A stretch of 64,000 bases of DNA from an uncultured Armatimonadia bacterium (lineage in GTDB: Bacteria > Armatimonadota > Zipacnadia > CAVVLO01): assembly GCA_963749155.1 (NCBI GenBank), contig CAVVLO010000005.1, positions 192,001 to 256,000 on the forward strand, in the 5' to 3' direction. The notes beneath the pieces were generated by a model. The model had not been told where the DNA came from. It saw nothing but the letters and a program-made list of their open reading frames with translations, and did no database searches. A program made the translations under genes and the position numbers. Each line of letters starts with the position of its first letter. The first letter of the stretch is position 1. This document shows, piece after piece, positions 2,209 through 14,293 of the stretch.

Positions 2209-4431
2209 TTAGCGATTCCTGCTTCCGCCGGACCTGCCGCCGCCACTGCCACCACGTCGGTCGCCGCCGCCACTACCGCCGCGCCGGTCACCGCCCCGGT
2301 CACTACCGCGGTCACTGCGTTCGCGCTCGGGGCGCTCGACATAGCCTTCCGGCTTGGGCGTGAGCTCTTTCATCGAAAGACGCACCCGGCCCAGGTCGTC
2401 GACTTCTATGATCTTGACCTCTACCTCATCGCCGATATGCAGCCTGTCTTCGACTTTCTCGACGCGTTCCCAGGAGATGTGCGAGACGTGCAGCAATCCA
2501 TCCTTGCCTGGAGCTATCTCGACGAAGGCCCCGTAAGGCTCGATGCGCACGACTTTACCCATCGTAACGAGGCCAGGCTCGGGATCGTGGGTCATCGCGT
2601 CGATGATGGCGATGGCCTTGTCCGCGTCTTCCTTGTTGAGAGCGGCGACGTAGACGGTGCCATCGTCTTCGATGTCGATGGTAGTATTGGTCTCTTCGAT
2701 GATCTTCTTGATGGTCTTGCCGCCTGGGCCAATGACCAGACCGATCTTCTCGCGGTCAATATGCAGGCTGAAGATGCGCGGCGCGAACGGCGAAAGATCG
2801 GCGCGCGGCTCGGAAATGACGTCGCGGATCTTGCCAATGATGTGCAGGCGGCCCTTGCGAGCGCGCTCGAACACCTCGGCCAGGAGCTGCTCGGGCAGGC
2901 CCTTGATTTTCATGTCGAGATGCATTGCCGTGACGCCTTTCTCGGTGCCGGCAATTTTGCAGTCCATGTCGCCGAGGAAATCCTCGAGCGCCATAATGTC
3001 AGTCATCAGGACGTACCGGTCCTCGTCAGTAACGAGGCCCATCGCGACCCCTGCGACAATGGCGGTGATCGGCACGCCCGCGTCCATCAAGGCCAGCGTC
3101 GAGCCGCATACAGCGCCCATCGAAGTGGAGCCGTTCGACTCTAATACTTCAGACACCAGACGGACCGTATAGGGGAAGGCTTCCTTGGTTGGAAGAACGG
3201 GCATCAGGGCTTTCTCGGCCAGGGAACCGTGACCGATTTCGCGCCTGCGCGGGCCCATCATCCGGCCGGTCTCGCCAGCGGAGAAGGGAGGGAAGTTGTA
3301 GTGATGCATATAGGTCTTGTCAGGCGCTTCGAGCATCGTATCGACGACCTGCGCCGAGCCGATGGTCGCTAGCGTCGCGACCGTCAGCACCTGGGTCTCG
3401 CCGCGCTGGAAAAGTCCGGCGCCATGCACGCGCGGCAGGAAGCCGACTTTGCACATAATGTCGCGCACTTCTTCAATGCCGCGGCCATCAGCGCGCACGC
3501 CGTGTTCCATAATAGACTTGCGAAGCTCGACTTTAATGACATCGTCGATAGCCTCTGAGACCTCGAAGCCCCGCTCGGCGTATTCGTCGCCCAGTTCGGT
3601 TTTGATACGCTTGTCAAGCGCGCTGAGGGCTGCGCTGCGCGCTTCCTTCGTCTTTATGAACAGTGCGGTCTTCAGGTCTTCGGTGTATTTCTGACCGATG
3701 AGAGTCTTAAGGGTCTCGTCTTTCTCGGGTTCGGTGAAAACAACCTTGGGCCGGGCGACCTTCGCGGCGATAGCTTCGATGGCGTCAAGCAGCGGGGGCA
3801 GTTGCTCCCAGGCAAACTTGATGGCGCCAAGTACAATCGGCTCGGGCAACTGCTCGGCTTCGATCTCGATGGTCAGCAGGCCGTCACGATGGCCCGCCAC
3901 TATCATGTGGAGCTCGCTGGCTTCCTGCTGAGCCGCGTCGGGGAAGGCGATATACTCGCCTTCGACATATGCGATGGGAAGAGCAGCTACCGCGGCATAT
4001 ATGGGTGCCTGCGAGGCCATCAAGGCCGCACTGGCGCCGATGATACCGAGGGCTGGCAGCGAGGTGTCATTGTCTACGGAAAGGGGCGAAACCACTACCT
4101 GCATATCTCTGCGGAACTTCTTGGGGAAGAGGGGGCGAAGCGGCCTGTCGATAAGCCTGGCCATCAAAGTGGCGGCCTCGCTTGGGCGTCCCTCGCGCTT
4201 GATGAAGCCGCCGGGGAGCTTGCCCGCTGCATACATCCTCTCTTCGACATCGACGGTGAAGGGCAGGAAATCGGTGTCGCGGTCTTCGTCTGAGACGCAA
4301 GCGGTGCAGAGCACTACGCTGTCTCCGTGACGAACGACCATTGAGCCGCCCGCCTGTTTGGCCAGTTCGCCAGTCTCAATTATGAGGGGCTTGCCTGCCA
4401 GTGTTAGTTCTACTTTCTCCATTCTACTCAA
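2209..4431 (-). CDS. pnp: Polyribonucleotide nucleotidyltransferase (PNPase)
   Basis: GGFIKREGRP, RREIGHG, SEVLESNGS, DFLGDMD motifs; KH (IGPGGKTI) and S1 domains; follows rpsO; TTG start with AGGAGG RBS. Confidence 0.97.
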   Translation of the reverse strand: MSRMEKVELTLAGKPLIIETGELAKQAGGSMVVRHGDSVVLCTACVSDEDRDTDFLPFTVDVEERMYAAGKLPGGFIKREGRPSEAATLMARLIDRPLRPLFPKKFRRDMQVVVSPLSVDNDTSLPALGIIGASAALMASQAPIYAAVAALPIAYVEGEYIAFPDAAQQEASELHMIVAGHRDGLLTIEIEAEQLPEPIVLGAIKFAWEQLPPLLDAIEAIAAKVARPKVVFTEPEKDETLKTLIGQKYTEDLKTALFIKTKEARSAALSALDKRIKTELGDEYAERGFEVSEAIDDVIKVELRKSIMEHGVRADGRGIEEVRDIMCKVGFLPRVHGAGLFQRGETQVLTVATLATIGSAQVVDTMLEAPDKTYMHHYNFPPFSAGETGRMMGPRRREIGHGSLAEKALMPVLPTKEAFPYTVRLVSEVLESNGSTSMGAVCGSTLALMDAGVPITAIVAGVAMGLVTDEDRYVLMTDIMALEDFLGDMDCKIAGTEKGVTAMHLDMKIKGLPEQLLAEVFERARKGRLHIIGKIRDVISEPRADLSPFAPRIFSLHIDREKIGLVIGPGGKTIKKIIEETNTTIDIEDDGTVYVAALNKEDADKAIAIIDAMTHDPEPGLVTMGKVVRIEPYGAFVEIAPGKDGLLHVSHISWERVEKVEDRLHIGDEVEVKIIEVDDLGRVRLSMKELTPKPEGYVERPERERSDRGSDRGGDRRGGSGGGDRRGGSGGGRSGGSRNR

Positions 4432-4625: not shown

Positions 4626-4892
4626 TTAGCGACGCAGACCGAGGCGCTGGATAAGATCGCGATAACGCTTCGAGTCCGTGCGCTCCAGATAACGTAGCAT
4701 GCGGCGGCGCTCGCCAACCATAACAAGCAGACCGCGGCGGGAGTGGTAGTCCTTCTTGTGCAGCTTGAGGTGCTCTGTAAGCTGGCTGATACGCGTGGTA
4801 AGCAGAGCGACCTGCACTTCGGGTGAGCCGGTATCGTTATCAGCAAGACGATATTGCTTGATGACCTCGGCTTTCTCTTCAACTGTAAGCAC
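4626..4892 (-). CDS. rpsO: 30S ribosomal protein S15
   Basis: [25 protein letters not shown] motifs; 88 aa; GTG start with AGGAGG. Confidence 0.97.
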
Positions 4893-5071: not shown

Positions 5072-5971
5072 GTGAAGACTATTGCGAGCATCTCCCTTGG
5101 CTCAAGCACGCGTGATTTTGAGGTCGAGGCCGAGTTTGGCGGGCAGCAGTTCAGGTTGCTCAGGCTTGGCACCGATGGCAGTCTTGGGGAATATAGACGT
5201 CTCCTCGAGGAATGGGACGAGAAAGCTGATGTGCTGGCGCTTGGAGGCATCGACCTTTACGTGCGCCAGGGGCAGCGGGTTTATACTTTTCGGGATGCGG
5301 CGCGACTTGCCAAAGGGCTGAAAAAGCCTGTCGTAGATGGCTCGGGCCTCAAGGCTACCCTCGAGCGCAACGCGGTGCGCTCACTGGCCGAGCAGGGAGT
5401 GCTCAAGTTTGAGGGGCTGCCAGTGTTGCTGGTTGCCGGCATCGACCGGTTTGGCCTGGCCGAGGAATTGCGCGACCGCCACTGCGACCTGGTACTGGGC
5501 GATATGATGTTCGCTCTTGGAGTGCCAGTGGCCTTCACCCGCTGGTGGCAGTTCCTTGTGGCAGGCAAGTTATTACTTCCGATAATCGTGCGTTTGCCGT
5601 TCAAGTGGATATATCCCACAGGCGAAAAGCAGGAAACGACCAAACCGCGCTTTGGCAAGTGGTACAAGTGGGCCGAGTTGATCTGTGGCGACTTCCATTT
5701 TATTCGCAAGTATCTGCCCGAGAGGCTCGAGGGCAAGTATATACTTACCAATACAATCACTTCAGCGGATCGGCAGTTGCTGAAGGAGCGCGGGCTCAAG
5801 GCGCTTATAACCACAACCCCAAGTTTTGGAGGACGCAGCTCGGGCACCAATGTCCTCGAAGGGGTTGTGTTGTTGCTGTCAGGGGCGACCCAGTACGACC
5901 CAGCCAGGTATGAAGCAGTGCTGGATGAATTGAAACTGCAGCCAGAGGTTAGCTGGCTGCAGGAAGGATAA
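5072..5971 (+). CDS. Conserved protein of unknown function (family often loosely labelled quinate 5-dehydrogenase), partner of the downstream reductase
   Basis: 299 aa ORF with strong RBS; SISLGSS, GLGGIDL-like, VVDGSGLK, GDFHFI, GRSxGTNVLE motifs. Confidence 0.65.
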   Translation: MKTIASISLGSSTRDFEVEAEFGGQQFRLLRLGTDGSLGEYRRLLEEWDEKADVLALGGIDLYVRQGQRVYTFRDAARLAKGLKKPVVDGSGLKATLERNAVRSLAEQGVLKFEGLPVLLVAGIDRFGLAEELRDRHCDLVLGDMMFALGVPVAFTRWWQFLVAGKLLLPIIVRLPFKWIYPTGEKQETTKPRFGKWYKWAELICGDFHFIRKYLPERLEGKYILTNTITSADRQLLKERGLKALITTTPSFGGRSSGTNVLEGVVLLLSGATQYDPARYEAVLDELKLQPEVSWLQEG

Positions 5972-5980
5972 TCCAGGTCT

Positions 5981-7054
5981 ATGGAGCGCTTTGCCTTCAT
6001 TATTCACCCGCTCAAGCCCAAGCAGGCGGCTCGGAAGTATCCTGTCGCCAGGCTACTGCCTGATTTCCTCCTTGAAAAGCTGTTGCACAAGCAGCACTCC
6101 AGGATCGCCTCCCATATAACAGGGGTCAAATCGGCGACAGGGGTTGAGGCAGAGGGCTGGTTCGTAGGTTGCCCGCTTACCCCGAAGGCGATAATGACGA
6201 TGCCGGAGGAGTTCACGGTCGGCAAGATAATAGAATCCGCCCGGATCGCCCAGGAGCATGGCGCAGGTATCGTAGGCCTGGGCGCCTATACCTCTATTGC
6301 TGGCGATGCGGGAATTACAGTTGCCAAAAACGTAGATATCGCGGTCACCACCGGCAACAGCTATACGGTTGCCACTGCTGTCGAAGGGTTGCTTCAGGCA
6401 GCAGAACTAATGCGCCACAAGCCTTCGGAGTCGCTTTGCACCATCATCGGCGCGACTGGCTCAGTTGGGCGCACCTGTGCGATTTTGCTCGCGGATTCTG
6501 TGGCTGGACTGCGACTGGTAGGCAGAGACAGCGCCCGGACCGAACGCGTGGCGGCAGAAGTGCGCGAGGCCTGCCCTGATTGCCCTGTCGAGATCACTTC
6601 TGACATCGAGGCCTCACTCAAAGACGTGCCTCTTGTTGTGACCGTTACCAGCGCAATCGAGTCGGTCATCCAGCCTGCCTGGCTGACGAAGGGCGCTGTC
6701 GTATGCGATGTCGCCCGGCCAAGGGATGTCTCCGTCGCCGTTGCGAAGGAGCGCCAGGATGTGCTCGTCATCGAGGGAGGCGTGGTCAGTGTGCCAGGCC
6801 AGGTCGAGTTCAGGATGGACTTCGGCTTCCCCCCCTGCACTGCCTATGCCTGTATGTCTGAAACAATGATTTTGGCTCTCGAAGGGCGCTACGAAAGCTT
6901 CTCTCTGGGGCGCGATATAGAGCCTGACAAGGTGAAAGAGATAGCCGGGCTGGCTGCCAAACACGGTTTCAAGCTGGCGGGTTTCCGCAGCTTTGAGCGC
7001 GCCGTGACACCCGAGCTGATCGAGTCCGTTCAACGCGCGGCCGGATTGTTATAG
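5981..7054 (+). CDS. Acyl-ACP reductase-like (COG5322-type) NAD(P)-dependent thioester reductase
   Basis: FAFIIHP, VTTGNSYT, GATGSVG, DVARPRD and YACMSETMILALEGRYESFSLGR, which parallels cyanobacterial AAR FACFAEAMLLEFEG..FSWGR including the catalytic Cys. Confidence 0.75.
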   Translation: MERFAFIIHPLKPKQAARKYPVARLLPDFLLEKLLHKQHSRIASHITGVKSATGVEAEGWFVGCPLTPKAIMTMPEEFTVGKIIESARIAQEHGAGIVGLGAYTSIAGDAGITVAKNVDIAVTTGNSYTVATAVEGLLQAAELMRHKPSESLCTIIGATGSVGRTCAILLADSVAGLRLVGRDSARTERVAAEVREACPDCPVEITSDIEASLKDVPLVVTVTSAIESVIQPAWLTKGAVVCDVARPRDVSVAVAKERQDVLVIEGGVVSVPGQVEFRMDFGFPPCTAYACMSETMILALEGRYESFSLGRDIEPDKVKEIAGLAAKHGFKLAGFRSFERAVTPELIESVQRAAGLL

Positions 7055-7062
7055 GAGCTGGG

Positions 7063-8272
7063 ATGGACAGCCACAAGCTCGCGGAAAGCTGGCTCTCAGA
7101 CCTGGTTGCCCTGCCCAGTGTAACGGGGGAGGAAGAAGCCGCCCTGGCCTGGGTCGAAGCCAAACTGATCGAACTTGGTTATGCTCCTCAACGCCTTCCG
7201 CTGGGGGCCGATACCCTGGCCCATGAGGCTTATCGCCCCTTTCGAGCCGCTTTCAGACTGGCAAAGGGCCAATCTGGTAGTGAAGCTGCCGGGCGAAGGC
7301 GCTCCGCTGCTCCTTAACACCCATCTCGATACCGTCCCGGCCGCAGGCTGGGAGGAGGCCTTCACCCCCCGGATTGTGGGAGACAGGCTTATCGGACGCG
7401 GAGCCTCTGATGCCAAAGGCCAGGTGGTCACTCTCCTCCTGGTCGCAGCGGCGCTGAAAGAGCGTGGCCTTGCCCTCGAGCGCCCTCTGGAGTTCCATTT
7501 CGTCATCGAAGAAGAGGTCGGCGGGAATGGGGCACTTGCCCTTGCGCTGGCCTCGAAGGGCGCCTCCGGTTGCGTGGTGCTCGAGCCAACAGGTTTGAAT
7601 ATCCACCCGTCCAACCGCGGCGCGCTCTGGTTCAAGTACAGGTTGGAAGGTAAGAGTGTGCATATGGGGCGCATCCAGGAGGGCGTAAACGCCATCGAGA
7701 AAGCCTGGCTGCTGGCCGAAAGCCTGCGGGCTTATTGGGCAGAGCTACTCGAAGCAAGTCGAGGCTATCCTGGTTATGAGCACTATGAGGTGCCAGTGCA
7801 AGTGAATCTTGGGACAATCCATGGCGGTGACTGGCCCTCGATGGTGGCGGGCTGGTGCGAGCTGGAAGGCGGAGTTGGCTTCCTGCCGAGCAAGACTCTT
7901 GCCGAGGTCGAAGCCGACCTCAGAGCGCTTATCGCCAGCCATCCGGACGACTGGCTGCGAGACCATACTACTGTGACCTTCGACCGGCTGCGCAACGAGG
8001 CTTTCGCTTTCCCTCTCGATCATCCTCTGGCGCTGGGCCTGCACCAAGCCGCCCGCGCTGCTGGAGGCAAAGCCGAGATCACTGGCTGGAACGTCTCTTG
8101 TGATGCGCGCCTTTATGCGAAAGTGGCTGAAGTGCCGACCGTCGTTTTCGGTGCTGGCGACGTGGCTGAAGCCCATTCGGCAGGGGAGAGCATCGCGCTC
8201 CCCGAATTACTGCTCGCTGCCGAGGCGCTTACCGAGTTTGTTTTGGACTGGTGTGGTGTAAGGAGTATCTGA
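7063..8272 (+). CDS. M20 (ArgE/DapE-like) deacylase; +1 frameshift near 7241
   Basis: N-part LVALPSVTGEE in ORF 7063; NTHLDTVP, GRGASDAKG, EEEVGG, CDAR, AHSAGE in ORF 7175; removing one T from CCC TTT CGAG joins the frames. Confidence 0.85.
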
Positions 8273-8274
8273 AA

Positions 8275-9606
8275 ATGAAGCAAGGTATTGAGATCCTTAC
8301 CGAGTTGCCCGGCCCGCGCTGCCGCGCGGCGCTGGAGGAAGCCAGGCTGTATGAGCCTGCTTCGATGAGCGAACAGGCGCCTGTGGTCTGGGATCAGGCT
8401 GAAGGCTGCTATGTGAAGGATCTCGATGGCAACGTTTTTCTTGATTTTACCTCGGGAGTGCTGGTTGCCAATGTCGGCCATTCACGTCCCGAGATTGTAG
8501 AAGCCATCCGCGAGCAGGCAGGCAAGGTTATAAACTGTTATGACTTCCTCTCGGAGCCTCGGCTTGCCCTCTCAAAGCGGCTTGTAGAACTCGCTCCAGC
8601 CCCTCTGGACAGAGCTTTCATCCTCACCACAGGCGCCGAGACTACCGAAGCGGCCATCAAGCTGGCGCGCAAGGCCACCGGCAAGTATGAGATTATCGCT
8701 TTCTGGGGCGCCTTCCATGGCAGGACGATGGGGGCTCTCTCTTTAGGCGGCAAGCGCTCCGGAGCAGGGGCCTCGGGCTTTGGGCCTTTCGTGCCAGGCA
8801 TCCATCATGCACCCTTCCCTTATTGTTATCGCTGCCCCTTCGGGAAGAGCCGGCCTGGTTGCGCCCTGGAATGCCTGGCTTTCCTCGAGCCTTTCTACGA
8901 TATGGTCACAGAGCACAAGGTGGCCGCGGTCATCGTCGAGACCTACCAGGGGGGCGCGGGCAGCATAATCGCGCCGAAAGAATGGTGGCAGGGGCTGCAG
9001 GCCTGGTGCCGCAGCAAGGATATCCTGCTGATAATTGACGAGGTGCAGGCCTCCTTTGGGCGCACGGGCAAATGGTTCGCCTTCGAGCATTACGGCCTGG
9101 AGCCTGACCTCGTATGCCTGGGCAAGGGGCTCTCGAGCAGCCTGCCTGTCTCGGCGCTGCTTGGGCCGTCCAGCCTGATGGATTGCCTGGGGCCTGGCAC
9201 GCTTTCCAGCACGCATGGGGGCAATCCGCTTGGCGATGCCGCGGCGCTGGCCAATATCGATGTTATCGAAAAAGAAAACCTCTGCGATCGCGCCGCCAGG
9301 CTTGGCGACTTGGCTCTGGGGCGGATGAAAAGCTGGCAGGAGCGCTTCTCCATCGTGGGAGAGGCGCGCGGTATGGGCCTTGCGATGGCGCTTGAACTGG
9401 TGGAGGACAAGGTCACGAAGCAGCCTGCGCCCGCTCTCGTGAAGCGGCTGATAGATTTATGTTACCGGAAAGGCTTGCTGTTGATTGCGCCCATCGGCAC
9501 CTATGGCAACTGCCTCAGGCTCTCGCCTCCTCTTGTGATCACCGAAGCAGAGCTGGCTCTGGGCCTGGACCTTATCGAAGCTGCACTTGAGGAGCTGACT
9601 TCCTGA
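8275..9606 (+). CDS. Class III PLP-dependent aminotransferase (GabT/ArgD-like)
   Basis: DFTSGVLVANVGH, TGAETTE, FHGRT, DEVQASFGRTG, PDLVCLGKGL, STHGGNP; ATG 8275 after AAGGAG. Confidence 0.92.
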   Translation: MKQGIEILTELPGPRCRAALEEARLYEPASMSEQAPVVWDQAEGCYVKDLDGNVFLDFTSGVLVANVGHSRPEIVEAIREQAGKVINCYDFLSEPRLALSKRLVELAPAPLDRAFILTTGAETTEAAIKLARKATGKYEIIAFWGAFHGRTMGALSLGGKRSGAGASGFGPFVPGIHHAPFPYCYRCPFGKSRPGCALECLAFLEPFYDMVTEHKVAAVIVETYQGGAGSIIAPKEWWQGLQAWCRSKDILLIIDEVQASFGRTGKWFAFEHYGLEPDLVCLGKGLSSSLPVSALLGPSSLMDCLGPGTLSSTHGGNPLGDAAALANIDVIEKENLCDRAARLGDLALGRMKSWQERFSIVGEARGMGLAMALELVEDKVTKQPAPALVKRLIDLCYRKGLLLIAPIGTYGNCLRLSPPLVITEAELALGLDLIEAALEELTS

Positions 9607-10433
9607 GTACCTCTCGCAACAAGCGGTGGTCGAAAGAGGAGATCCTGACGCGGCTGCGCGAGTTGCACGAGCAGGGCGTGAAGCTGGTGCCTTCCGAAAT
9701 GCAGCGCAGGGAGCCAAAGCTTTTCTATATCGCCCGGTCGAGGTCTTATTTTGGCACCTGGAAAGAGGCCGTGCGCGCGGCAGGCTATTCGTATCGACGT
9801 ATAAAGAAAAGCGCCAGCAGGTGGAACCCCGAGCGCGTGCGTCGAGAACTTGCCAGACATTTTGCGGCGGGGGAGGATCTGCTGTCGCCTGTTTTCTGCA
9901 AGCAGAACGCCAAACTCGTCGAGGTGGCAAGAGGCAGGGGCGCCTTCGGGGGATGGCGTAAAGCGCTGGAGGCCGCCGGGATTGATCCGGAGGAAGTGCG
10001 CAAGCGGCATTTCCTCTCCAAGGAACGGATTATCGAGGAGCTGCAGGCGCTTGCGGCAAGCGGATCAGTACCAGATTCCAAAACTTTGCGCGAGACTCGG
10101 CCCGATTTGTATCGAGCAGCGCGCCGGCCGGAGACCTTCGGCAGTTTCCAGTCGGCGCTGGTGGCTGCTGGACTGGCAGAGGAAGAGCCGAAACAGCGCA
10201 TCCGCTGGAGCCGCGAACGCGTAAAGCTGGGGGTTCAGGTGCTCGCCAGACGCGGAGTTGGCCTGAGCCAGCAAGAGGCTCTGGCTGTCTCGCCAGCGCT
10301 GGTAGCGGCGGCCAAGAGCAAGCGCCATTTCGGCAGTTGGGGCAAAGCGGTCGAAGCTGCCGGTTTTGATTATGCCAAACACAGCCAGCGCAGGCGAAAG
10401 CCTGCCAAAGGCAGACGAGGTGAGGCGCGATGA
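9603..10433 (+). CDS. Basic protein of four ~65-aa helical repeats (resembles the homing-endonuclease-associated repeat); putative DNA-binding protein
   Basis: Four units W(S/N)xExx...FG(S/T/G)W/Fxx A(V/L)xAAG; the first repeat is complete only if translation begins at CTG 9603 (ORF track starts at TTG 9663). Confidence 0.7.
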   Translation: MSTSRNKRWSKEEILTRLRELHEQGVKLVPSEMQRREPKLFYIARSRSYFGTWKEAVRAAGYSYRRIKKSASRWNPERVRRELARHFAAGEDLLSPVFCKQNAKLVEVARGRGAFGGWRKALEAAGIDPEEVRKRHFLSKERIIEELQALAASGSVPDSKTLRETRPDLYRAARRPETFGSFQSALVAAGLAEEEPKQRIRWSRERVKLGVQVLARRGVGLSQQEALAVSPALVAAAKSKRHFGSWGKAVEAAGFDYAKHSQRRRKPAKGRRGEAR

Positions 10434-11389
10434 GGCTAGCTCTTGTAGAAGGCCCTGGCGGAAGGGAGTTCGCGCTACGACTTGGCAAGGAGTATTACGC
10501 TGTGTCAGCCCTGGCAAAAACGCTTGGGCGCGAGGACGAGGTCAGGCTACTGACTGACTGGCAGGCAGTCTGCTCACTTGACGGGCCGGCTCACAGTTTC
10601 CTGCAAGAGTTGCGCCAGACCTTTTCCACCAGGCCGGAGGCCTTGCCGGCGCCACTTGAACCCGGCAGTTTCGAGTTTCTGCCTGTGGTCGGGCCCGACA
10701 GGCAGCTCTTTCTGCTTGCGGGCAATTACCTCGAACATGTCAAAGAAGGCGAATCCATCCTCGCGCTCAAAGCGGCCGAGCAGCAGAAGTTCTACAGGCC
10801 ACGGGTCTTCTCGAAACACCCCGGTGTCTGTGGGATTGGTCACGGGACGCCTATCCAGATTCCAGTTAACGCTCGGCAGCCAGACTACGAAGGTGAGTTG
10901 CTTGTGGTTATCGGGCGAGAAGCAAGGCATGTTAGCCCTGATGAGGCTATGCAGCAGGTGTATGGTTACAGTATAATCAATGATGTTTCGGAGCGGGCTT
11001 TTCGCTCTGGCGCCGAAGAGAGCGAGCACCCCTTCGACAAGTTTTTCGACTGGCTTAACGGCAAATGGGCGGATGGTTACGCCGCCAGCGGCCCGGACCT
11101 GGTCAGCGCCGAGGAAGTGCCTGACCCATATGCCCTCGAACTGTCGACTGAAATTGACGGCGAGGTGCGCCAGAAGGCCAGCACGGGCGATATGATTTTC
11201 GACGTGGCTCGGGTGGTCAGCTTCATCTCGACCATCTGCACGCTAAGGCCAGGCGATGCCATCGCCACCGGGACGCCGAGTGGGGTTGGCAGCGCCTCGG
11301 GACGTTTCCTTAAGCCCGGTCAAACAGTCACAGTCCGCATCTCGGATGTGGGCGAGTTAAGCAACCCGGTTCAATCCGCGACACAGTGA
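10430..11389 (+). CDS. Fumarylacetoacetate hydrolase family protein
   Basis: AGNYLEH, DYEGELLVVIG, YSIINDVSER, GKWADG, LRPGDAIATGTPSGVG; ATGA overlap with the upstream gene. Confidence 0.93.
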   Translation: MRLALVEGPGGREFALRLGKEYYAVSALAKTLGREDEVRLLTDWQAVCSLDGPAHSFLQELRQTFSTRPEALPAPLEPGSFEFLPVVGPDRQLFLLAGNYLEHVKEGESILALKAAEQQKFYRPRVFSKHPGVCGIGHGTPIQIPVNARQPDYEGELLVVIGREARHVSPDEAMQQVYGYSIINDVSERAFRSGAEESEHPFDKFFDWLNGKWADGYAASGPDLVSAEEVPDPYALELSTEIDGEVRQKASTGDMIFDVARVVSFISTICTLRPGDAIATGTPSGVGSASGRFLKPGQTVTVRISDVGELSNPVQSATQ

Positions 11390-11393
11390 GGGG

Positions 11394-11789
11394 ATGGGTG
11401 TGAGCGTTAAAATTCTGGTTGTAGATGATGAGGTACCTGTAGCAACAGTTATCCAGGCGAACCTGGAACTCGAAGGCTACGAGGTCACAACCGCTTACGA
11501 TGGCAACCAGGGCCTTCTAAGGGCCAGAGAGCTCAAGCCTGACCTTATTCTGCTTGATGTGATGATGCCCGAGAAAGACGGCTGGACGGTATTGCAGGAG
11601 TTGCGCGGCGATCCGGAGTTGTACAAAACCCCGGTCATAATGCTCACCGCCCTTTCCCAGGAATCGGACATCTCGCGCGGCTGGGAGTCCGGTGTAGATT
11701 GTTACCTAACCAAGCCTTTTGATCCGCTTGAGATGATCGAGATTTGCAAACGCATCCTCGAGGCGGGCGATCTCGATCTCGATATGTAA
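11394..11789 (+). CDS. Single-domain response regulator (receiver only)
   Basis: ILVVDDE, LLDVMMP, IMLTA, YLTKPF; alternative start GTG 11400. Confidence 0.92.
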   Translation: MGVSVKILVVDDEVPVATVIQANLELEGYEVTTAYDGNQGLLRARELKPDLILLDVMMPEKDGWTVLQELRGDPELYKTPVIMLTALSQESDISRGWESGVDCYLTKPFDPLEMIEICKRILEAGDLDLDM

Positions 11790-11830: not shown

Positions 11831-14293
11831 ATGCGGTGCGCTCTAGCTATGCTGCTTGCGCTAGGTCTTGCCTGCGCGAGTAACGCTGCTCCAGCCTTCA
11901 AGGCTGCACTTTTTGCCATCCCCACCGAGCTTCCCTGGCGTTACCACCTCGCTTGTGTGGTAGCCAACGCAGGGGACGAACCTGTCAAAGTCAGAGTCAC
12001 TCCTCAGCTTGTTGCCGAGGCCAATCCGGCCAGCAGGCTTCTCGAACTGAAGCGCGATGAGGTTGCGACCGCCAGCTTCGAGATTACCGTTCCCTCTGAG
12101 GCCTTGAACAAACTGGTGCGAGTCAGTTGCAACGCGCCGGGCCAGAGTGAACAGCTCAAGCTGCGGCTGACCTCCCTTACCAGCCTCGCTGGCGCCTGGC
12201 AGGTGAAGTTCGTTGGTGATGATACCTCGCTTGGCTATGCGGCTGAAGACGCTTCTCTGGAGGGCTTCCAGCCGCACATCGTCCCCTACACCCTTGAAGA
12301 CGTTGGCTACACCTGGCTCAGGCGAGAGGTCGTAATCCCAGAGGGCTGGGCCGGCAAGCCGTTGATGCTGCATATGGTGCAGGTGGACGACAACGATGCC
12401 ACTTTTTTCAACGGCCAGAAGATTGGCGAGACAGGTGGCTGGGACAACCCCCGCAATTATGTCATCCCTTCCGACTTGATCCGGTATGGAGAGCCTAATC
12501 TGGTTGCCGTGCGCGTTCATAATACGGCCTGGGGCGGTGGGCTTTACAAGCTGCCTCTTTATATCGCCCCCGAAGAAGTGATCTCTCGCGACCTGGCGAA
12601 GGGCCTTGTCCTGACTGACTATGCCCCCAAACCCGCGCCCAGATCAGCCCCGGGCGCCGTTGGCCCAGCCTTGCCCATGCGCCCGATTTTCGAGGAAGAG
12701 GGCGTCCTCTATTATATGGAAGGCCAGGAGGTCGCTCTCTGGGGCACCAACTACTACCCGATGGCCTGGGGCCAGTACACCAATATGCAGGCCAGGGGTG
12801 CCGATTTCCATAAAGCCATCGTGGAAGACCTCGATATGATGCAGCAGATGGGTATAGAGGTGCTGCGGCTGCATCTCTTCGACACCGAGATGTCCGATGC
12901 CCAGGGCAATCTGATAGACAACGAGCATCTGGAACTGCTTGATTTTCTTATTGCCGAGTGCAACCGGCGCAGTCTCTACTTTGTTATGACCACGATGGCC
13001 TGGTGGGGGTCGCCTTCGCAGCGCCCGGATGCCTTCTCGGTATTGCATCCGAAGGAAGCTCTGCTCTGGGGCGCTGAAGCAAAAGCGGCGGAGAAGAACT
13101 ACCTGAACCAGCTGCTAACCCATGTGAACCGATATACCGGCAATCCGTACGCCAAAGAGCCCTGCATCGCCTGTTATGAGTTGCTCAATGAGCCGACCTA
13201 CTACAGTTATGGCCAGGTGACCAGCGGCGCTGAAGAACGCGAGATTACCGAGTTACGGCAGCTTTATGCCGATTGGCTCGAGGCCAACGCCCTGCCTGAT
13301 AACGCGATGACCTACGATGCCTTCAGTTGCGAATTGGCAGCTAGCTGGGCCAATGGCAATCTGCGCGCCTTGCGCGAGGCAGGGGCCAGGCAGCCTGCGG
13401 GCATCGCTTTCTTCGCAGCGCATACGGTGGAGGGATTGCATCTCGGATTTTACCTTTCCCATGCCCAGCTCTTCACCACAGGCCGCTATATCGGCAGCTC
13501 GGAAGGCTGGAAAGGCCATGACACAACGGCCGACAACTATATGGCCTCCTACAACGCCGACAGCTTCCCCGAGGCTCTGGATAGCCTTGCGCGTATCGTC
13601 TACGAGTTCGATGCCATCTCGACGAGTCGCAGTTATATGTATCCGCCTTTCGCTGCGATGTGGCGCGATGCCGAGGTCCAGATCGCAACCCAGTTCCAGT
13701 ACGACACAATCGTAACCGCCGATCGCAACAGCGACTGGAATATCCATTATCTGAACTTCTGGTACACGCCCCGCAAAGCCGTCAGCTTCCTCATTGCGAG
13801 TGATGTATTTTTTGATCTGCCGAGGGGAACACCCTTCGCGCCAGAGCCAATGGGCAATATCCTGCCTGAACTGGGCGTCGCCTTCAGCTTCGAGCATGAT
13901 GTCAGTATCGAGGCGCGCCCAGACGTCTACAGGCAGAGCGCCCCGACCGACTGGAGGCCCTTGCCAATACCCCGGACCCCGCGCGAGATTATGGCCGTAG
14001 GCAATTGTCCCTACTGGGAATATGATGGAACCGGGCTGGTGCAACTGAAAGCCTCTGCAGAAGGTGCTACACTTGTAATAACGCCCAACGTGACTGAGCA
14101 TTATCCCTCGGGCGAATACTGGCACGAGGGGATGACCCGCACGCTGGACTCGGAGCCGAAAACGCTCAGGCTAAGATTGCCTGGTTATCAGGAGGCCAGG
14201 CTCATCGCTGCTGATGGCGCCATCCTGCAGCTTGTAAAAGGCGCAATCGAATTGAAACCTGGCACCTATAAACTCGAGCCTGCTGCTCGCTAG
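11831..14293 (+). CDS. Secreted glycoside hydrolase: jelly-roll sugar-binding domain plus clan GH-A (GH5-like) catalytic domain
   Basis: Signal peptide; VDDNDATFFNGQKIG...NLVAVRV..GGG domain; WGTNYY, RLH, ELLNEP acid/base, VYEFD nucleophile candidate. Confidence 0.75.
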   Translation: MRCALAMLLALGLACASNAAPAFKAALFAIPTELPWRYHLACVVANAGDEPVKVRVTPQLVAEANPASRLLELKRDEVATASFEITVPSEALNKLVRVSCNAPGQSEQLKLRLTSLTSLAGAWQVKFVGDDTSLGYAAEDASLEGFQPHIVPYTLEDVGYTWLRREVVIPEGWAGKPLMLHMVQVDDNDATFFNGQKIGETGGWDNPRNYVIPSDLIRYGEPNLVAVRVHNTAWGGGLYKLPLYIAPEEVISRDLAKGLVLTDYAPKPAPRSAPGAVGPALPMRPIFEEEGVLYYMEGQEVALWGTNYYPMAWGQYTNMQARGADFHKAIVEDLDMMQQMGIEVLRLHLFDTEMSDAQGNLIDNEHLELLDFLIAECNRRSLYFVMTTMAWWGSPSQRPDAFSVLHPKEALLWGAEAKAAEKNYLNQLLTHVNRYTGNPYAKEPCIACYELLNEPTYYSYGQVTSGAEEREITELRQLYADWLEANALPDNAMTYDAFSCELAASWANGNLRALREAGARQPAGIAFFAAHTVEGLHLGFYLSHAQLFTTGRYIGSSEGWKGHDTTADNYMASYNADSFPEALDSLARIVYEFDAISTSRSYMYPPFAAMWRDAEVQIATQFQYDTIVTADRNSDWNIHYLNFWYTPRKAVSFLIASDVFFDLPRGTPFAPEPMGNILPELGVAFSFEHDVSIEARPDVYRQSAPTDWRPLPIPRTPREIMAVGNCPYWEYDGTGLVQLKASAEGATLVITPNVTEHYPSGEYWHEGMTRTLDSEPKTLRLRLPGYQEARLIAADGAILQLVKGAIELKPGTYKLEPAAR

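Follow-up and report, generated by a model that had tools for sequence, protein, structure and literature searches.

In a 64,000-nt stretch from an uncultured Armatimonadia bacterium (contig CAVVLO010000005.1, positions 192,001 to 256,000, hereafter the window), four adjacent genes encode a 299-aa protein of unnamed family (U299), a reductase (RED), an M20-family deacylase and a class III aminotransferase. A sequence-only reading of this DNA had joined the four into a single carboxyl-to-amine pathway. We find that they probably represent two modules with separate histories, which stand next to each other, and are probably transcribed together, in this lineage alone. The first module, U299 and RED, would be a two-subunit reductase of the type of cyanobacterial acyl-ACP reductase (AAR) and PigE's N-terminal domain. 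The second, the M20 deacylase and the aminotransferase, would be a local copy of a cassette that relatives carry together with a GFO/IDH/MocA oxidoreductase, and would have no link to the first. The features concerned are as follows:

5072-5971, + strand: U299, 299 aa, GTG start, unnamed family
5981-7054, + strand: RED reductase, 357 aa, GATGSVG at residues 157-163, Cys291
7063-8272, + strand: M20 ArgE/DapE-family deacylase gene, in two frames (7063-7317 and 7175-8272)
7236-7244, + strand: place where the M20 reading frame is broken by an extra base, within CCCC TTT C G
8275-9606, + strand: class III aminotransferase, 443 aa from an ATG, with an in-frame GTG at 8251 as another possible start

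All four genes lie on the same strand, separated by gaps of 9 nt (5972-5980), 8 nt (7055-7062) and 2 nt (8273-8274), the spacing that had been described for them. U299, RED and the aminotransferase are confirmed as open reading frames (ORFs), and only the M20 gene departs from the earlier inventory in not being a single open frame in the window. A GGAGG sequence stands 10-17 nt 5' of the GTG start of U299; upstream, genes for a PNPase-domain protein (2209-4431) and ribosomal protein S15 (4626-4892) lie on the opposite strand, and U299 therefore begins a unit of its own. Contigs of other runs, from other studies and 94-98% identical to the window in nucleotide sequence, bridge the junctions between U299 and RED (X2 record 11, X6 record 18), RED and M20 (X2 record 12), and M20 and the aminotransferase (X2 record 13, X6 record 22). 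The four-gene arrangement in the window is real.

Family and fold of RED and U299

RED is, by sequence, a stand-alone relative of the PigE N-terminal domain (PDB 4ppm; prodigiosin MAP pathway) and of cyanobacterial AAR (PDB 6jzq/6jzu; EC 1.2.1.80). Its best family is NF053554, the PigE model, which it matches over positions 39-355 of 837 (E 8.7e-66) with 222.8 bits against a cut-off of 850, and on the AAR model TIGR04058 (E 1.6e-24) it reaches 86.8 bits, or 86.4 bits in the genome search, against an equivalog cut-off of 449.7; these scores place it outside both curated families. Among the sequences of solved structures, RED matches PigE (4ppm_A, E 2.7e-35) and, over residues 42-331, AAR (6jzq_A, E 6.5e-20). 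HMMER alignments set the RED motif AYACMSE (residues 288-294) over 'MFACFAE' of AAR and 'GCMAET' of PigE, and bring GATGSVG into register with GATGDIG of AAR. As described in the available sections of two studies (PMC8341465, PMC10829540), AAR Cys294 and PigE Cys296 are the acyl-enzyme nucleophiles, GATGDIG is the NADPH motif, and these reductases convert a thioester to an aldehyde by a ping-pong mechanism. The corresponding Cys291 of RED is kept in 29 of 30 aligned homologues, the exception (L048) having a Cys two residues earlier, and the reductase Cys is invariant across 40 fusion proteins. The claim of an AAR-like enzyme with a catalytic-type Cys is thus upheld by kinship with both AAR and the PigE N-terminal domain and by the alignment of the Cys itself. 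We infer that Cys291 of RED would accept the acyl group of a thioester, either acyl-ACP or acyl-CoA, and that this group would then be reduced with NAD(P)H to the free aldehyde, as in AAR and the PigE N-terminal domain.

Unlike AAR, RED has no aldehyde-deformylating oxygenase in its genome. The sequence-only reading had remarked on this absence, and it extends beyond the window: TIGR04059 has 0 matches in the whole genome (G000, 100% complete), and the same model gave a match above cut-off in the control, Synechococcus elongatus. RED also differs from AAR in being accompanied by a protein that is itself predicted to have the AAR fold; no such partner of AAR is reported in the portions of the AAR literature at hand, nor in the accessible part of a preprint on the related TAD domain (bioRxiv 10.1101/2024.10.28.620694).

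That protein, U299, matches no Pfam or NCBIfam family at E<=0.01 and no PDB sequence at E<=1. Its family is large: of 8000 candidates scored, 3559 reach E<=0.001, and representative clusters number 1343 at E<=1e-3, 870 at 1e-10 and 347 at 1e-30. Among the Atlas clusters of U299-like proteins, one has Deinococcota as its most frequent group, and the family is also found in contigs labelled human gut metagenome. Across 26 members the mean identity per column is 64%, with many invariant polar residues; the family has no conserved Cys, and U299 lacks a GxGxxG loop, with 'VAGIDRFG' at that place. We aligned the AlphaFold (AF2) model of U299 (pLDDT 87.2, pTM 0.85) structurally with 48,161 representative chains, without a Foldseek prefilter, and AAR (6jzq_A) ranked first (Z 14.6, root-mean-square deviation 4.1, 246 residues aligned), so that AAR, to which RED is related by sequence, is also the best match of the predicted fold of U299. 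Foldseek alone ranked sugar-binding proteins first, with low TM scores. The model thus portrays U299 as a cryptic AAR-fold partner of RED without the catalytic Cys or the GxGxxG motif, and U299 may be an old structural paralogue of the RED fold that lost both its Cys and its glycine-rich loop.

The second structural match (Z 12.3) is the TAD of the carmabin nonribosomal peptide synthetase (NRPS; PDB 9e4s/9e4u), which shares the AAR-like two-domain fold. According to the accessible part of the preprint cited above (bioRxiv 10.1101/2024.10.28.620694), TADs stand at the end of NRPS modules and have an invariant Cys beside bound NAD, whereas U299 has no such conserved residue and occurs as a free protein or as the N-terminal half of a U299-RED fusion.

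Further down the ranking stand glutamate dehydrogenases, malic enzymes and shikimate dehydrogenases (Z about 8.6-10.2), and these bear on the label 'quinate 5-dehydrogenase' that U299 homologues carry in some sources, automatic cluster names included. Taken at their word, the labels would make U299 a stand-alone quinate/shikimate 5-dehydrogenase, for which the shikimate dehydrogenases at Z 8.6-9.5 could also be cited. We regard this as very improbable, given that U299 matches neither Shikimate_DH nor any other Pfam or NCBIfam model, has no glycine-rich dinucleotide loop, aligns clearly better with AAR and TAD, and is found fused to RED in 116 of 120 long RED homologues. Both 'quinate 5-dehydrogenase' and 'serine carboxypeptidase', another label met among these proteins, are database mislabels for the family.

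Stand-alone, RED-fused and BioF-fused forms of U299 keep 24 positions in common, including D49, D53, D89, E98, R99, D144 and E263, residues that would form an acidic/arginine core of U299's own. In the model D144 ends the strand after the degenerate loop, which may correspond to the place of the ribose-binding acid of Rossmann folds. The BioF-fused form is P0423 (762 aa), in which a BioF/Kbl/serine-palmitoyltransferase-like acyltransferase dependent on pyridoxal phosphate, a member of an acyl-thioester-using enzyme class, is joined to U299.

Linkage, fusion and setting of the U299-RED pair

To count linkage, we used loci that extend downstream of U299 by 1200 nt or more, and scored RED as directly downstream when no more than 400 nt separated it from U299 on the same strand. 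Each scan contributed its 80 most similar loci and the related genomes are not independent, and the following fractions are therefore descriptive only:

Species-representative genomes: RED directly downstream of U299 in 47/73 loci
Genomes of the window's class: 18/36 loci
Metagenome contigs: 42/62 loci
All samples: 107/171 loci

Median gaps between the two genes were 25-44 nt (tblastn). With the single protein as query, the genome and metagenome contig scans returned no close relatives, and with an alignment as query the closest locus was 52% identical; nearer relatives of U299 (P0002, 71%) and of M20 (P0122, 66%) stand outside the neighbourhood counts. Among 41 genomes of the window's class, G000 included, U299 is present in 40 and RED in all 41, in 40 of them at E<=6e-82, and class genomes in which the two genes lie apart still have both.

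The two proteins are also found as a single chain. We searched for long RED homologues (626-2000 aa), and of the best 120, taken from the matches listed (BLASTP), 116 are U299-RED fusions, with U299 at about residues 1-300 and RED at about 307-665, in the gene order of the split form. These are Chloroflexota-labelled proteins, their source names including Herpetosiphon, Anaerolineae, Roseiflexaceae and Ardenticatenaceae, and they are often labelled 'serine carboxypeptidase'. The AF2 model of one of them, P0256, has a pLDDT of 87.7 and a pTM of 0.73. In the window, U299 stands immediately upstream of RED (9 nt) and so has the arrangement by which the pair is defined. The suggestion that the 299-aa protein is a partner subunit of the reductase is strengthened by adjacency in 107/171 loci, by co-occurrence within the class (40/41 and 41/41 genomes) and by fusion in 116/120 proteins, because of which we take U299 to be a partner subunit of RED, presumably in a physical complex. 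A structure prediction of RED with U299 (score 0.00, mark 0.32) spoke neither for nor against binding. As an obligate partner, U299 may be non-catalytic or differently catalytic, and could serve in substrate delivery, product hand-off or regulation.

The remaining four of the 120 long homologues comprise one fusion of a class III aminotransferase with RED (P0354) and three proteins (P0270, P0295 and P0349, 647-663 aa) in which PilZ and SRPBCC (Polyketide_cyc) domains precede RED. These three hint at control by c-di-GMP and a lipid ligand in some lineages, and the SRPBCC domains, together with the SRPBCC protein encoded next to RED in one locus (L056), hint at a hydrophobic ligand.

Several observations weigh against the two-module interpretation or against parts of it. 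Comparison of U299 with RED by hhalign detected no sequence homology (probability 0.3%), the best and insignificant alignment placing 'VLLVAGIDRFG' over 'CTIIGATGSVG', so that the claim of paralogy rests on predicted structure. RED falls far under the curated cut-offs for AAR and PigE, and its substrate may differ from those of both. RED does not adjoin U299 in about a third of the loci with room for it, and in Syntrophomonadaceae-labelled loci an unrelated 304-aa protein takes its place after U299 (L019:8908-9822, and L057, L071, L023, L036, L063 and L077); this protein has no Pfam family and no homology to RED. U299 and RED are core genes surrounded by housekeeping genes, an uncommon setting for an enzyme of lipid tailoring or secondary metabolism. 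Finally, the 8- and 2-nt spacing of RED, M20 and the aminotransferase is kept in strains 94-98% identical to the window, which would fit a functional operon in this lineage.

In Bacillota-labelled loci the housekeeping neighbourhood most commonly runs from type III pantothenate kinase through Dus, a 181-aa helix-turn-helix (HTH) protein, U299, RED and GreA to a class II tRNA synthetase of the Lys/Asp/Asn type, represented by clusters present in 34, 43, 49, 75, 52, 48 and 50 of 80 loci, respectively. The window's class has the order MreBCD-like genes (names read from the sequences), KDO genes, pantothenate kinase, Dus, U299, RED, synthetase and UbiA-type transferase, and in the window's organism the U299-RED pair has moved beside rpsO and pnp. 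The 181-aa protein, encoded 5' of U299 (e.g. L017:2164-2709), matches HTH_3 weakly at its N-terminus, ends in a domain without an assigned family and is absent from the window; it may be a dedicated regulator of the pair. Response-regulator-like genes stand directly 5' of U299 in the relatives' loci L122, L129, L135 and L137.

This setting raises the alternative of a housekeeping role, in which the substrate of U299-RED would be a small or macromolecule-bound activated carboxyl instead of a fatty acyl chain, such as a short CoA thioester or, processed as glutamyl-tRNA reductase does, an aminoacyl-tRNA, and the product would feed central or cofactor metabolism. The two genes are part of the core set of the class, with 50-59% identity between phyla, and the order from pantothenate kinase through Dus, the HTH gene where present, U299, RED and, in some loci, GreA to the synthetase is kept in Bacillota-labelled loci as well as in the window's class. 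PMC8341465 names glutamyl-tRNA reductase as a second protein related in structure to the PigE N-terminal domain, and NCBIfam hemA models match RED weakly (E 1e-8 to 2e-6). HemA and HemL would offer a parallel, namely a Cys-dependent reductase of an activated carboxyl working with a class III-fold enzyme; unlike HemA, RED matches these models in its NAD-binding region only. A HemL partner was considered and dropped: the class III gene of L029 does encode a true HemL, yet its distance from U299 makes it look incidental, and the rest of its cluster is PigE-type. Against a housekeeping role stand the closest characterised relatives (the PigE N-terminal domain, AAR, and the KecF and TamH fusions), which according to the accessible parts of the literature use medium or long acyl thioesters, and the lipid-binding SRPBCC domains that are fused to RED in the three PilZ proteins or encoded between U299 and RED in L056; moreover, gene order beside housekeeping genes is no evidence for shared function. 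One specific version, a beta-alanine bypass from a malonyl thioester through malonate semialdehyde suggested by the pantothenate kinase neighbour, was discarded, since G000 has panD and a bypass would be unneeded. Genes that we read as panD-like from their cluster sequence co-occur with RED in some loci. Overall, we think a housekeeping role of this kind unlikely.

A more specific proposal within the thioester-reductase interpretation, which we consider improbable and offer as speculation, is that Terrabacteria-type lineages have in U299-RED a near-universal but unrecognised acyl-thioester reductase, composed of a catalytic AAR-type subunit and a pseudo-enzyme paralogue, that supplies fatty aldehyde for non-ester membrane lipids. 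Together with a PigE/YgjG-type aminotransferase it might provide the long-chain alkylamines of, for example, Thermus and Deinococcus N-glyceroyl-alkylamine phosphoglycolipids, for whose fatty-amine step the available text of PMC9636437 names no enzymes. Of the 14 control genomes, 4 have a match to the AAR model, among them those of Thermus thermophilus and Deinococcus radiodurans, and the E. coli and B. subtilis genomes have none. For the lipid proposal these matches are leads only, as are the Deinococcota-rich Atlas cluster and the associations with SRPBCC proteins and PigE-type aminotransferases.

The U299-RED pair thus emerges as a very widespread family, and a core pair of the window's class, in which a reductase of AAR/PigE type goes with what appears to be a second AAR-fold protein that the family libraries do not recognise. 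A search of open-access full text, with subscription papers outside its coverage, found no description of a U299-type AAR partner, and open-access papers on AAR homologues, Chloroflexi and wax esters yielded nothing on the U299-RED family. Assigning a substrate would give a function to thousands of genes, and could show a source of bacterial fatty aldehydes, alcohols or amines outside cyanobacteria.

The M20 deacylase and the aminotransferase

The second pair of genes is, by family, an ordinary one. The M20 protein matches Peptidase_M20 (2.8e-28) and M20_dimer (1.5e-14) in Pfam, and its frame-2 part, the only part scored, reaches 214 bits against a cut-off of 376 on its best family, PRK06837, 125.9 against 297.7 on TIGR01892 and 75.4 against 363 on PRK04443 ([LysW]-lysine hydrolase), which leaves it under all ArgE, DapE and LysK cut-offs. 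The aminotransferase matches Aminotran_3 (2.5e-102) and is of a GABA-aminotransferase-like subtype, with PRK05769 as best family (412 bits against a cut-off of 552); it scores 289.8 against 410.05 on the argD model TIGR00707, and its best 25 families include neither a LysJ model nor NF053554, which places it outside the PigE/YgjG subtype. The likeness to ArgC/D/E and LysY/J/K on which the sequence-only reading had drawn is therefore one of broad kinds, a Cys acyl-enzyme reductase with a class III aminotransferase and an M20 deacylase: every curated cut-off is missed, RED, unlike ArgC and LysY, is not of the semialdehyde-dehydrogenase family, and the trio is not conserved.

Within 6 kb of U299, neither an M20 gene nor an aminotransferase of the window's type was found in any of the 171 loci (0/171 for each), the sole weak match to the latter being the HemL gene of L029, about 3.6 kb from U299. 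Of the 41 class genomes, 34 carry M20 orthologues or paralogues (E<=1e-40) and 40 carry the aminotransferase (E<=1e-60). M20 was matched in 33 related genomes, and in 22 of these the two genes lie on one contig within about 7.5 kb, as read from the match coordinates. The aminotransferase orthologues of relatives (50-55% identity) lie 1.4-6.4 kb from the M20 orthologues. We fetched 20 stretches of relatives (L141-L160), for which ORFs were called crudely as the longest frames, partly antisense artefacts, with family scans on the named ORFs, and two cassettes recur among them. One has the order alanine racemase, GHMP kinase, M20, GFO/IDH/MocA oxidoreductase and aminotransferase, its M20 being 46-55% and its aminotransferase 50-55% identical to those of the window; the other runs from a D-2-hydroxyacid dehydrogenase through the aminotransferase, M20 and a Zn-alcohol dehydrogenase to GFO/IDH/MocA. 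The M20 and aminotransferase pair may serve in the catabolism or tailoring of an N-acylated amino compound. Since M20 and the aminotransferase adjoin U299/RED in 0/171 loci and have cassettes of their own in relatives, the proposed four-gene pathway is not supported. The neighbourhood survey returned what the sequence-only reading had itself named as grounds for abandoning the idea, with the first two genes standing mostly without the other two in relatives; the four genes are not a conserved unit, and the pathway should not be carried forward as such.

A narrower version would have the carboxyl-to-amine operon assembled recently, in this lineage, with U299-RED making an aldehyde, the aminotransferase converting it to an amine and the M20 enzyme removing an N-acyl group. 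The 9-, 8- and 2-nt gaps agree with it, as does the bridging of the gene order by contigs of other studies at 94-98% identity. Protein records for U299 (P0001) and M20 (P0121), 95-96% identical to those of the window, show the same figure, 99,937, for the longest contig; the window's aminotransferase falls in the omega-aminotransferase group, and RED-type reductases elsewhere adjoin or are fused to class III aminotransferases (L056, L027, L067, P0354). These RED-joined aminotransferases are, however, of the PigE/YgjG subtype (NF053554, 391-417 bits) and unlike that of the window, and a PigE/YgjG-type gene is carried elsewhere in G000 (C1:182372-183564). Set beside the count of 0/171 loci, the separate cassettes in 22/33 related genomes, and promoter and terminator scans that gave no signal above chance, these differences make a recently assembled operon, in our judgement, quite unlikely, and we retain the reading of two independent modules.

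Reduction followed by transamination is a logic that does occur with this type of reductase, so that this part of the earlier proposal holds for other loci; the window's aminotransferase is of another subtype. L056 encodes, in this order, U299, a class III aminotransferase, an SRPBCC (Polyketide_cyc) protein, RED, GreA and a tRNA synthetase, and in L027 and L067 a similar aminotransferase directly follows U299 before the contig ends. The aminotransferases of L056, L027 and L067 score 417, 391 and 278 bits on NF053554 and 516, 312 and 289 bits on PRK11522 (putrescine aminotransferase). PigE-type aminotransferases accompany U299/RED in 3 of the 171 counted loci (L027, L056 and a doubtful L182), L067 being too short to be counted. 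The match in L182, though counted, is uninformative: only half of an aminotransferase is present, it runs into a PMT_4TMC region, RED is not nearby, and the contig is probably rearranged or chimeric. Fusions of a transaminase with an AAR-type domain are described in the available parts of reports on PigE (PMC8341465), TamH (PMC9594044) and KecF (PMC6498172), and likewise for Pseudomonas putida and three thermophilic Firmicutes (PMC10829540). The combinations in L056, L027, L067 and P0354 resemble these proteins and PpKTFusion, in split or fused form, and RED-type enzymes can feed a transaminase in a few lineages.

The window differs from the PigE/TamH type in several respects. RED is a stand-alone protein of 357 aa with no transaminase domain in the polypeptide, the aminotransferase is a separate gene two genes away and not of the PigE/YgjG subtype, and RED lies outside any pigment or polyketide cluster, with U299 and not a transaminase as its usual partner. 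The PigE/YgjG-type gene of G000 has one orthologue in each of the 41 class genomes, with differing neighbours among relatives and no link to RED, and may simply be a housekeeping aminotransferase.

Frame break and other features of the window

The N-terminal part of the M20 gene is read in frame 1 (7063-7317, with a stop after 84 aa) and the remainder in frame 2 (7175-8272). P0121, an intact 402-aa orthologue that is 96% identical, follows frame 1 through '...AYRPF' and frame 2 from 'EP.SDWQRANL', and the break therefore lies within the run CCCC TTT C G at 7236-7244. Two Logan contigs, from public runs of different studies, have one base fewer here: X2 record 12 (6467-7409) at 7240, and X8 record 29 (7168-7498) at 7244, the latter being otherwise identical over 330 bases. 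Since two other studies yielded contigs without the extra base, we take it for a probable assembly error, or at most a strain-specific lesion, and treat M20 as a normal gene. Two other class III genes of G000 are also split over two frames (C1:182372-183564 and C3:338379-339563), and at least three frame-split genes in a genome of 7 contigs suggest single-base indel errors across the assembly. Apparent pseudogenes elsewhere in the window should be viewed cautiously, given such likely errors.

Across the 64-kb window, Rfam gave 0 families at gathering score, and signals from consensus promoter and terminator scans did not rise above shuffled controls. Upstream of the four genes, the PNPase (2209-4431, - strand) has a long Gly/Arg/Ser-rich tail (…RGGSGGGDRRGGSGGGRSGGSRNR) past its S1 domain. 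Downstream, the genes on the + strand are these:

9663-10433, + strand: 256-aa protein with three HNH_repeat repeats (PF18780, E 2.5e-21; homing-endonuclease-associated) and without a nuclease domain, overlapping the start of the next gene by 4 nt
10430-11389, + strand: fumarylacetoacetate-hydrolase-family gene
11394-11789, + strand: single-domain response regulator, as read from its sequence
11831-14293, + strand: 820-aa protein with a weak match to a GH2 sugar-binding domain only

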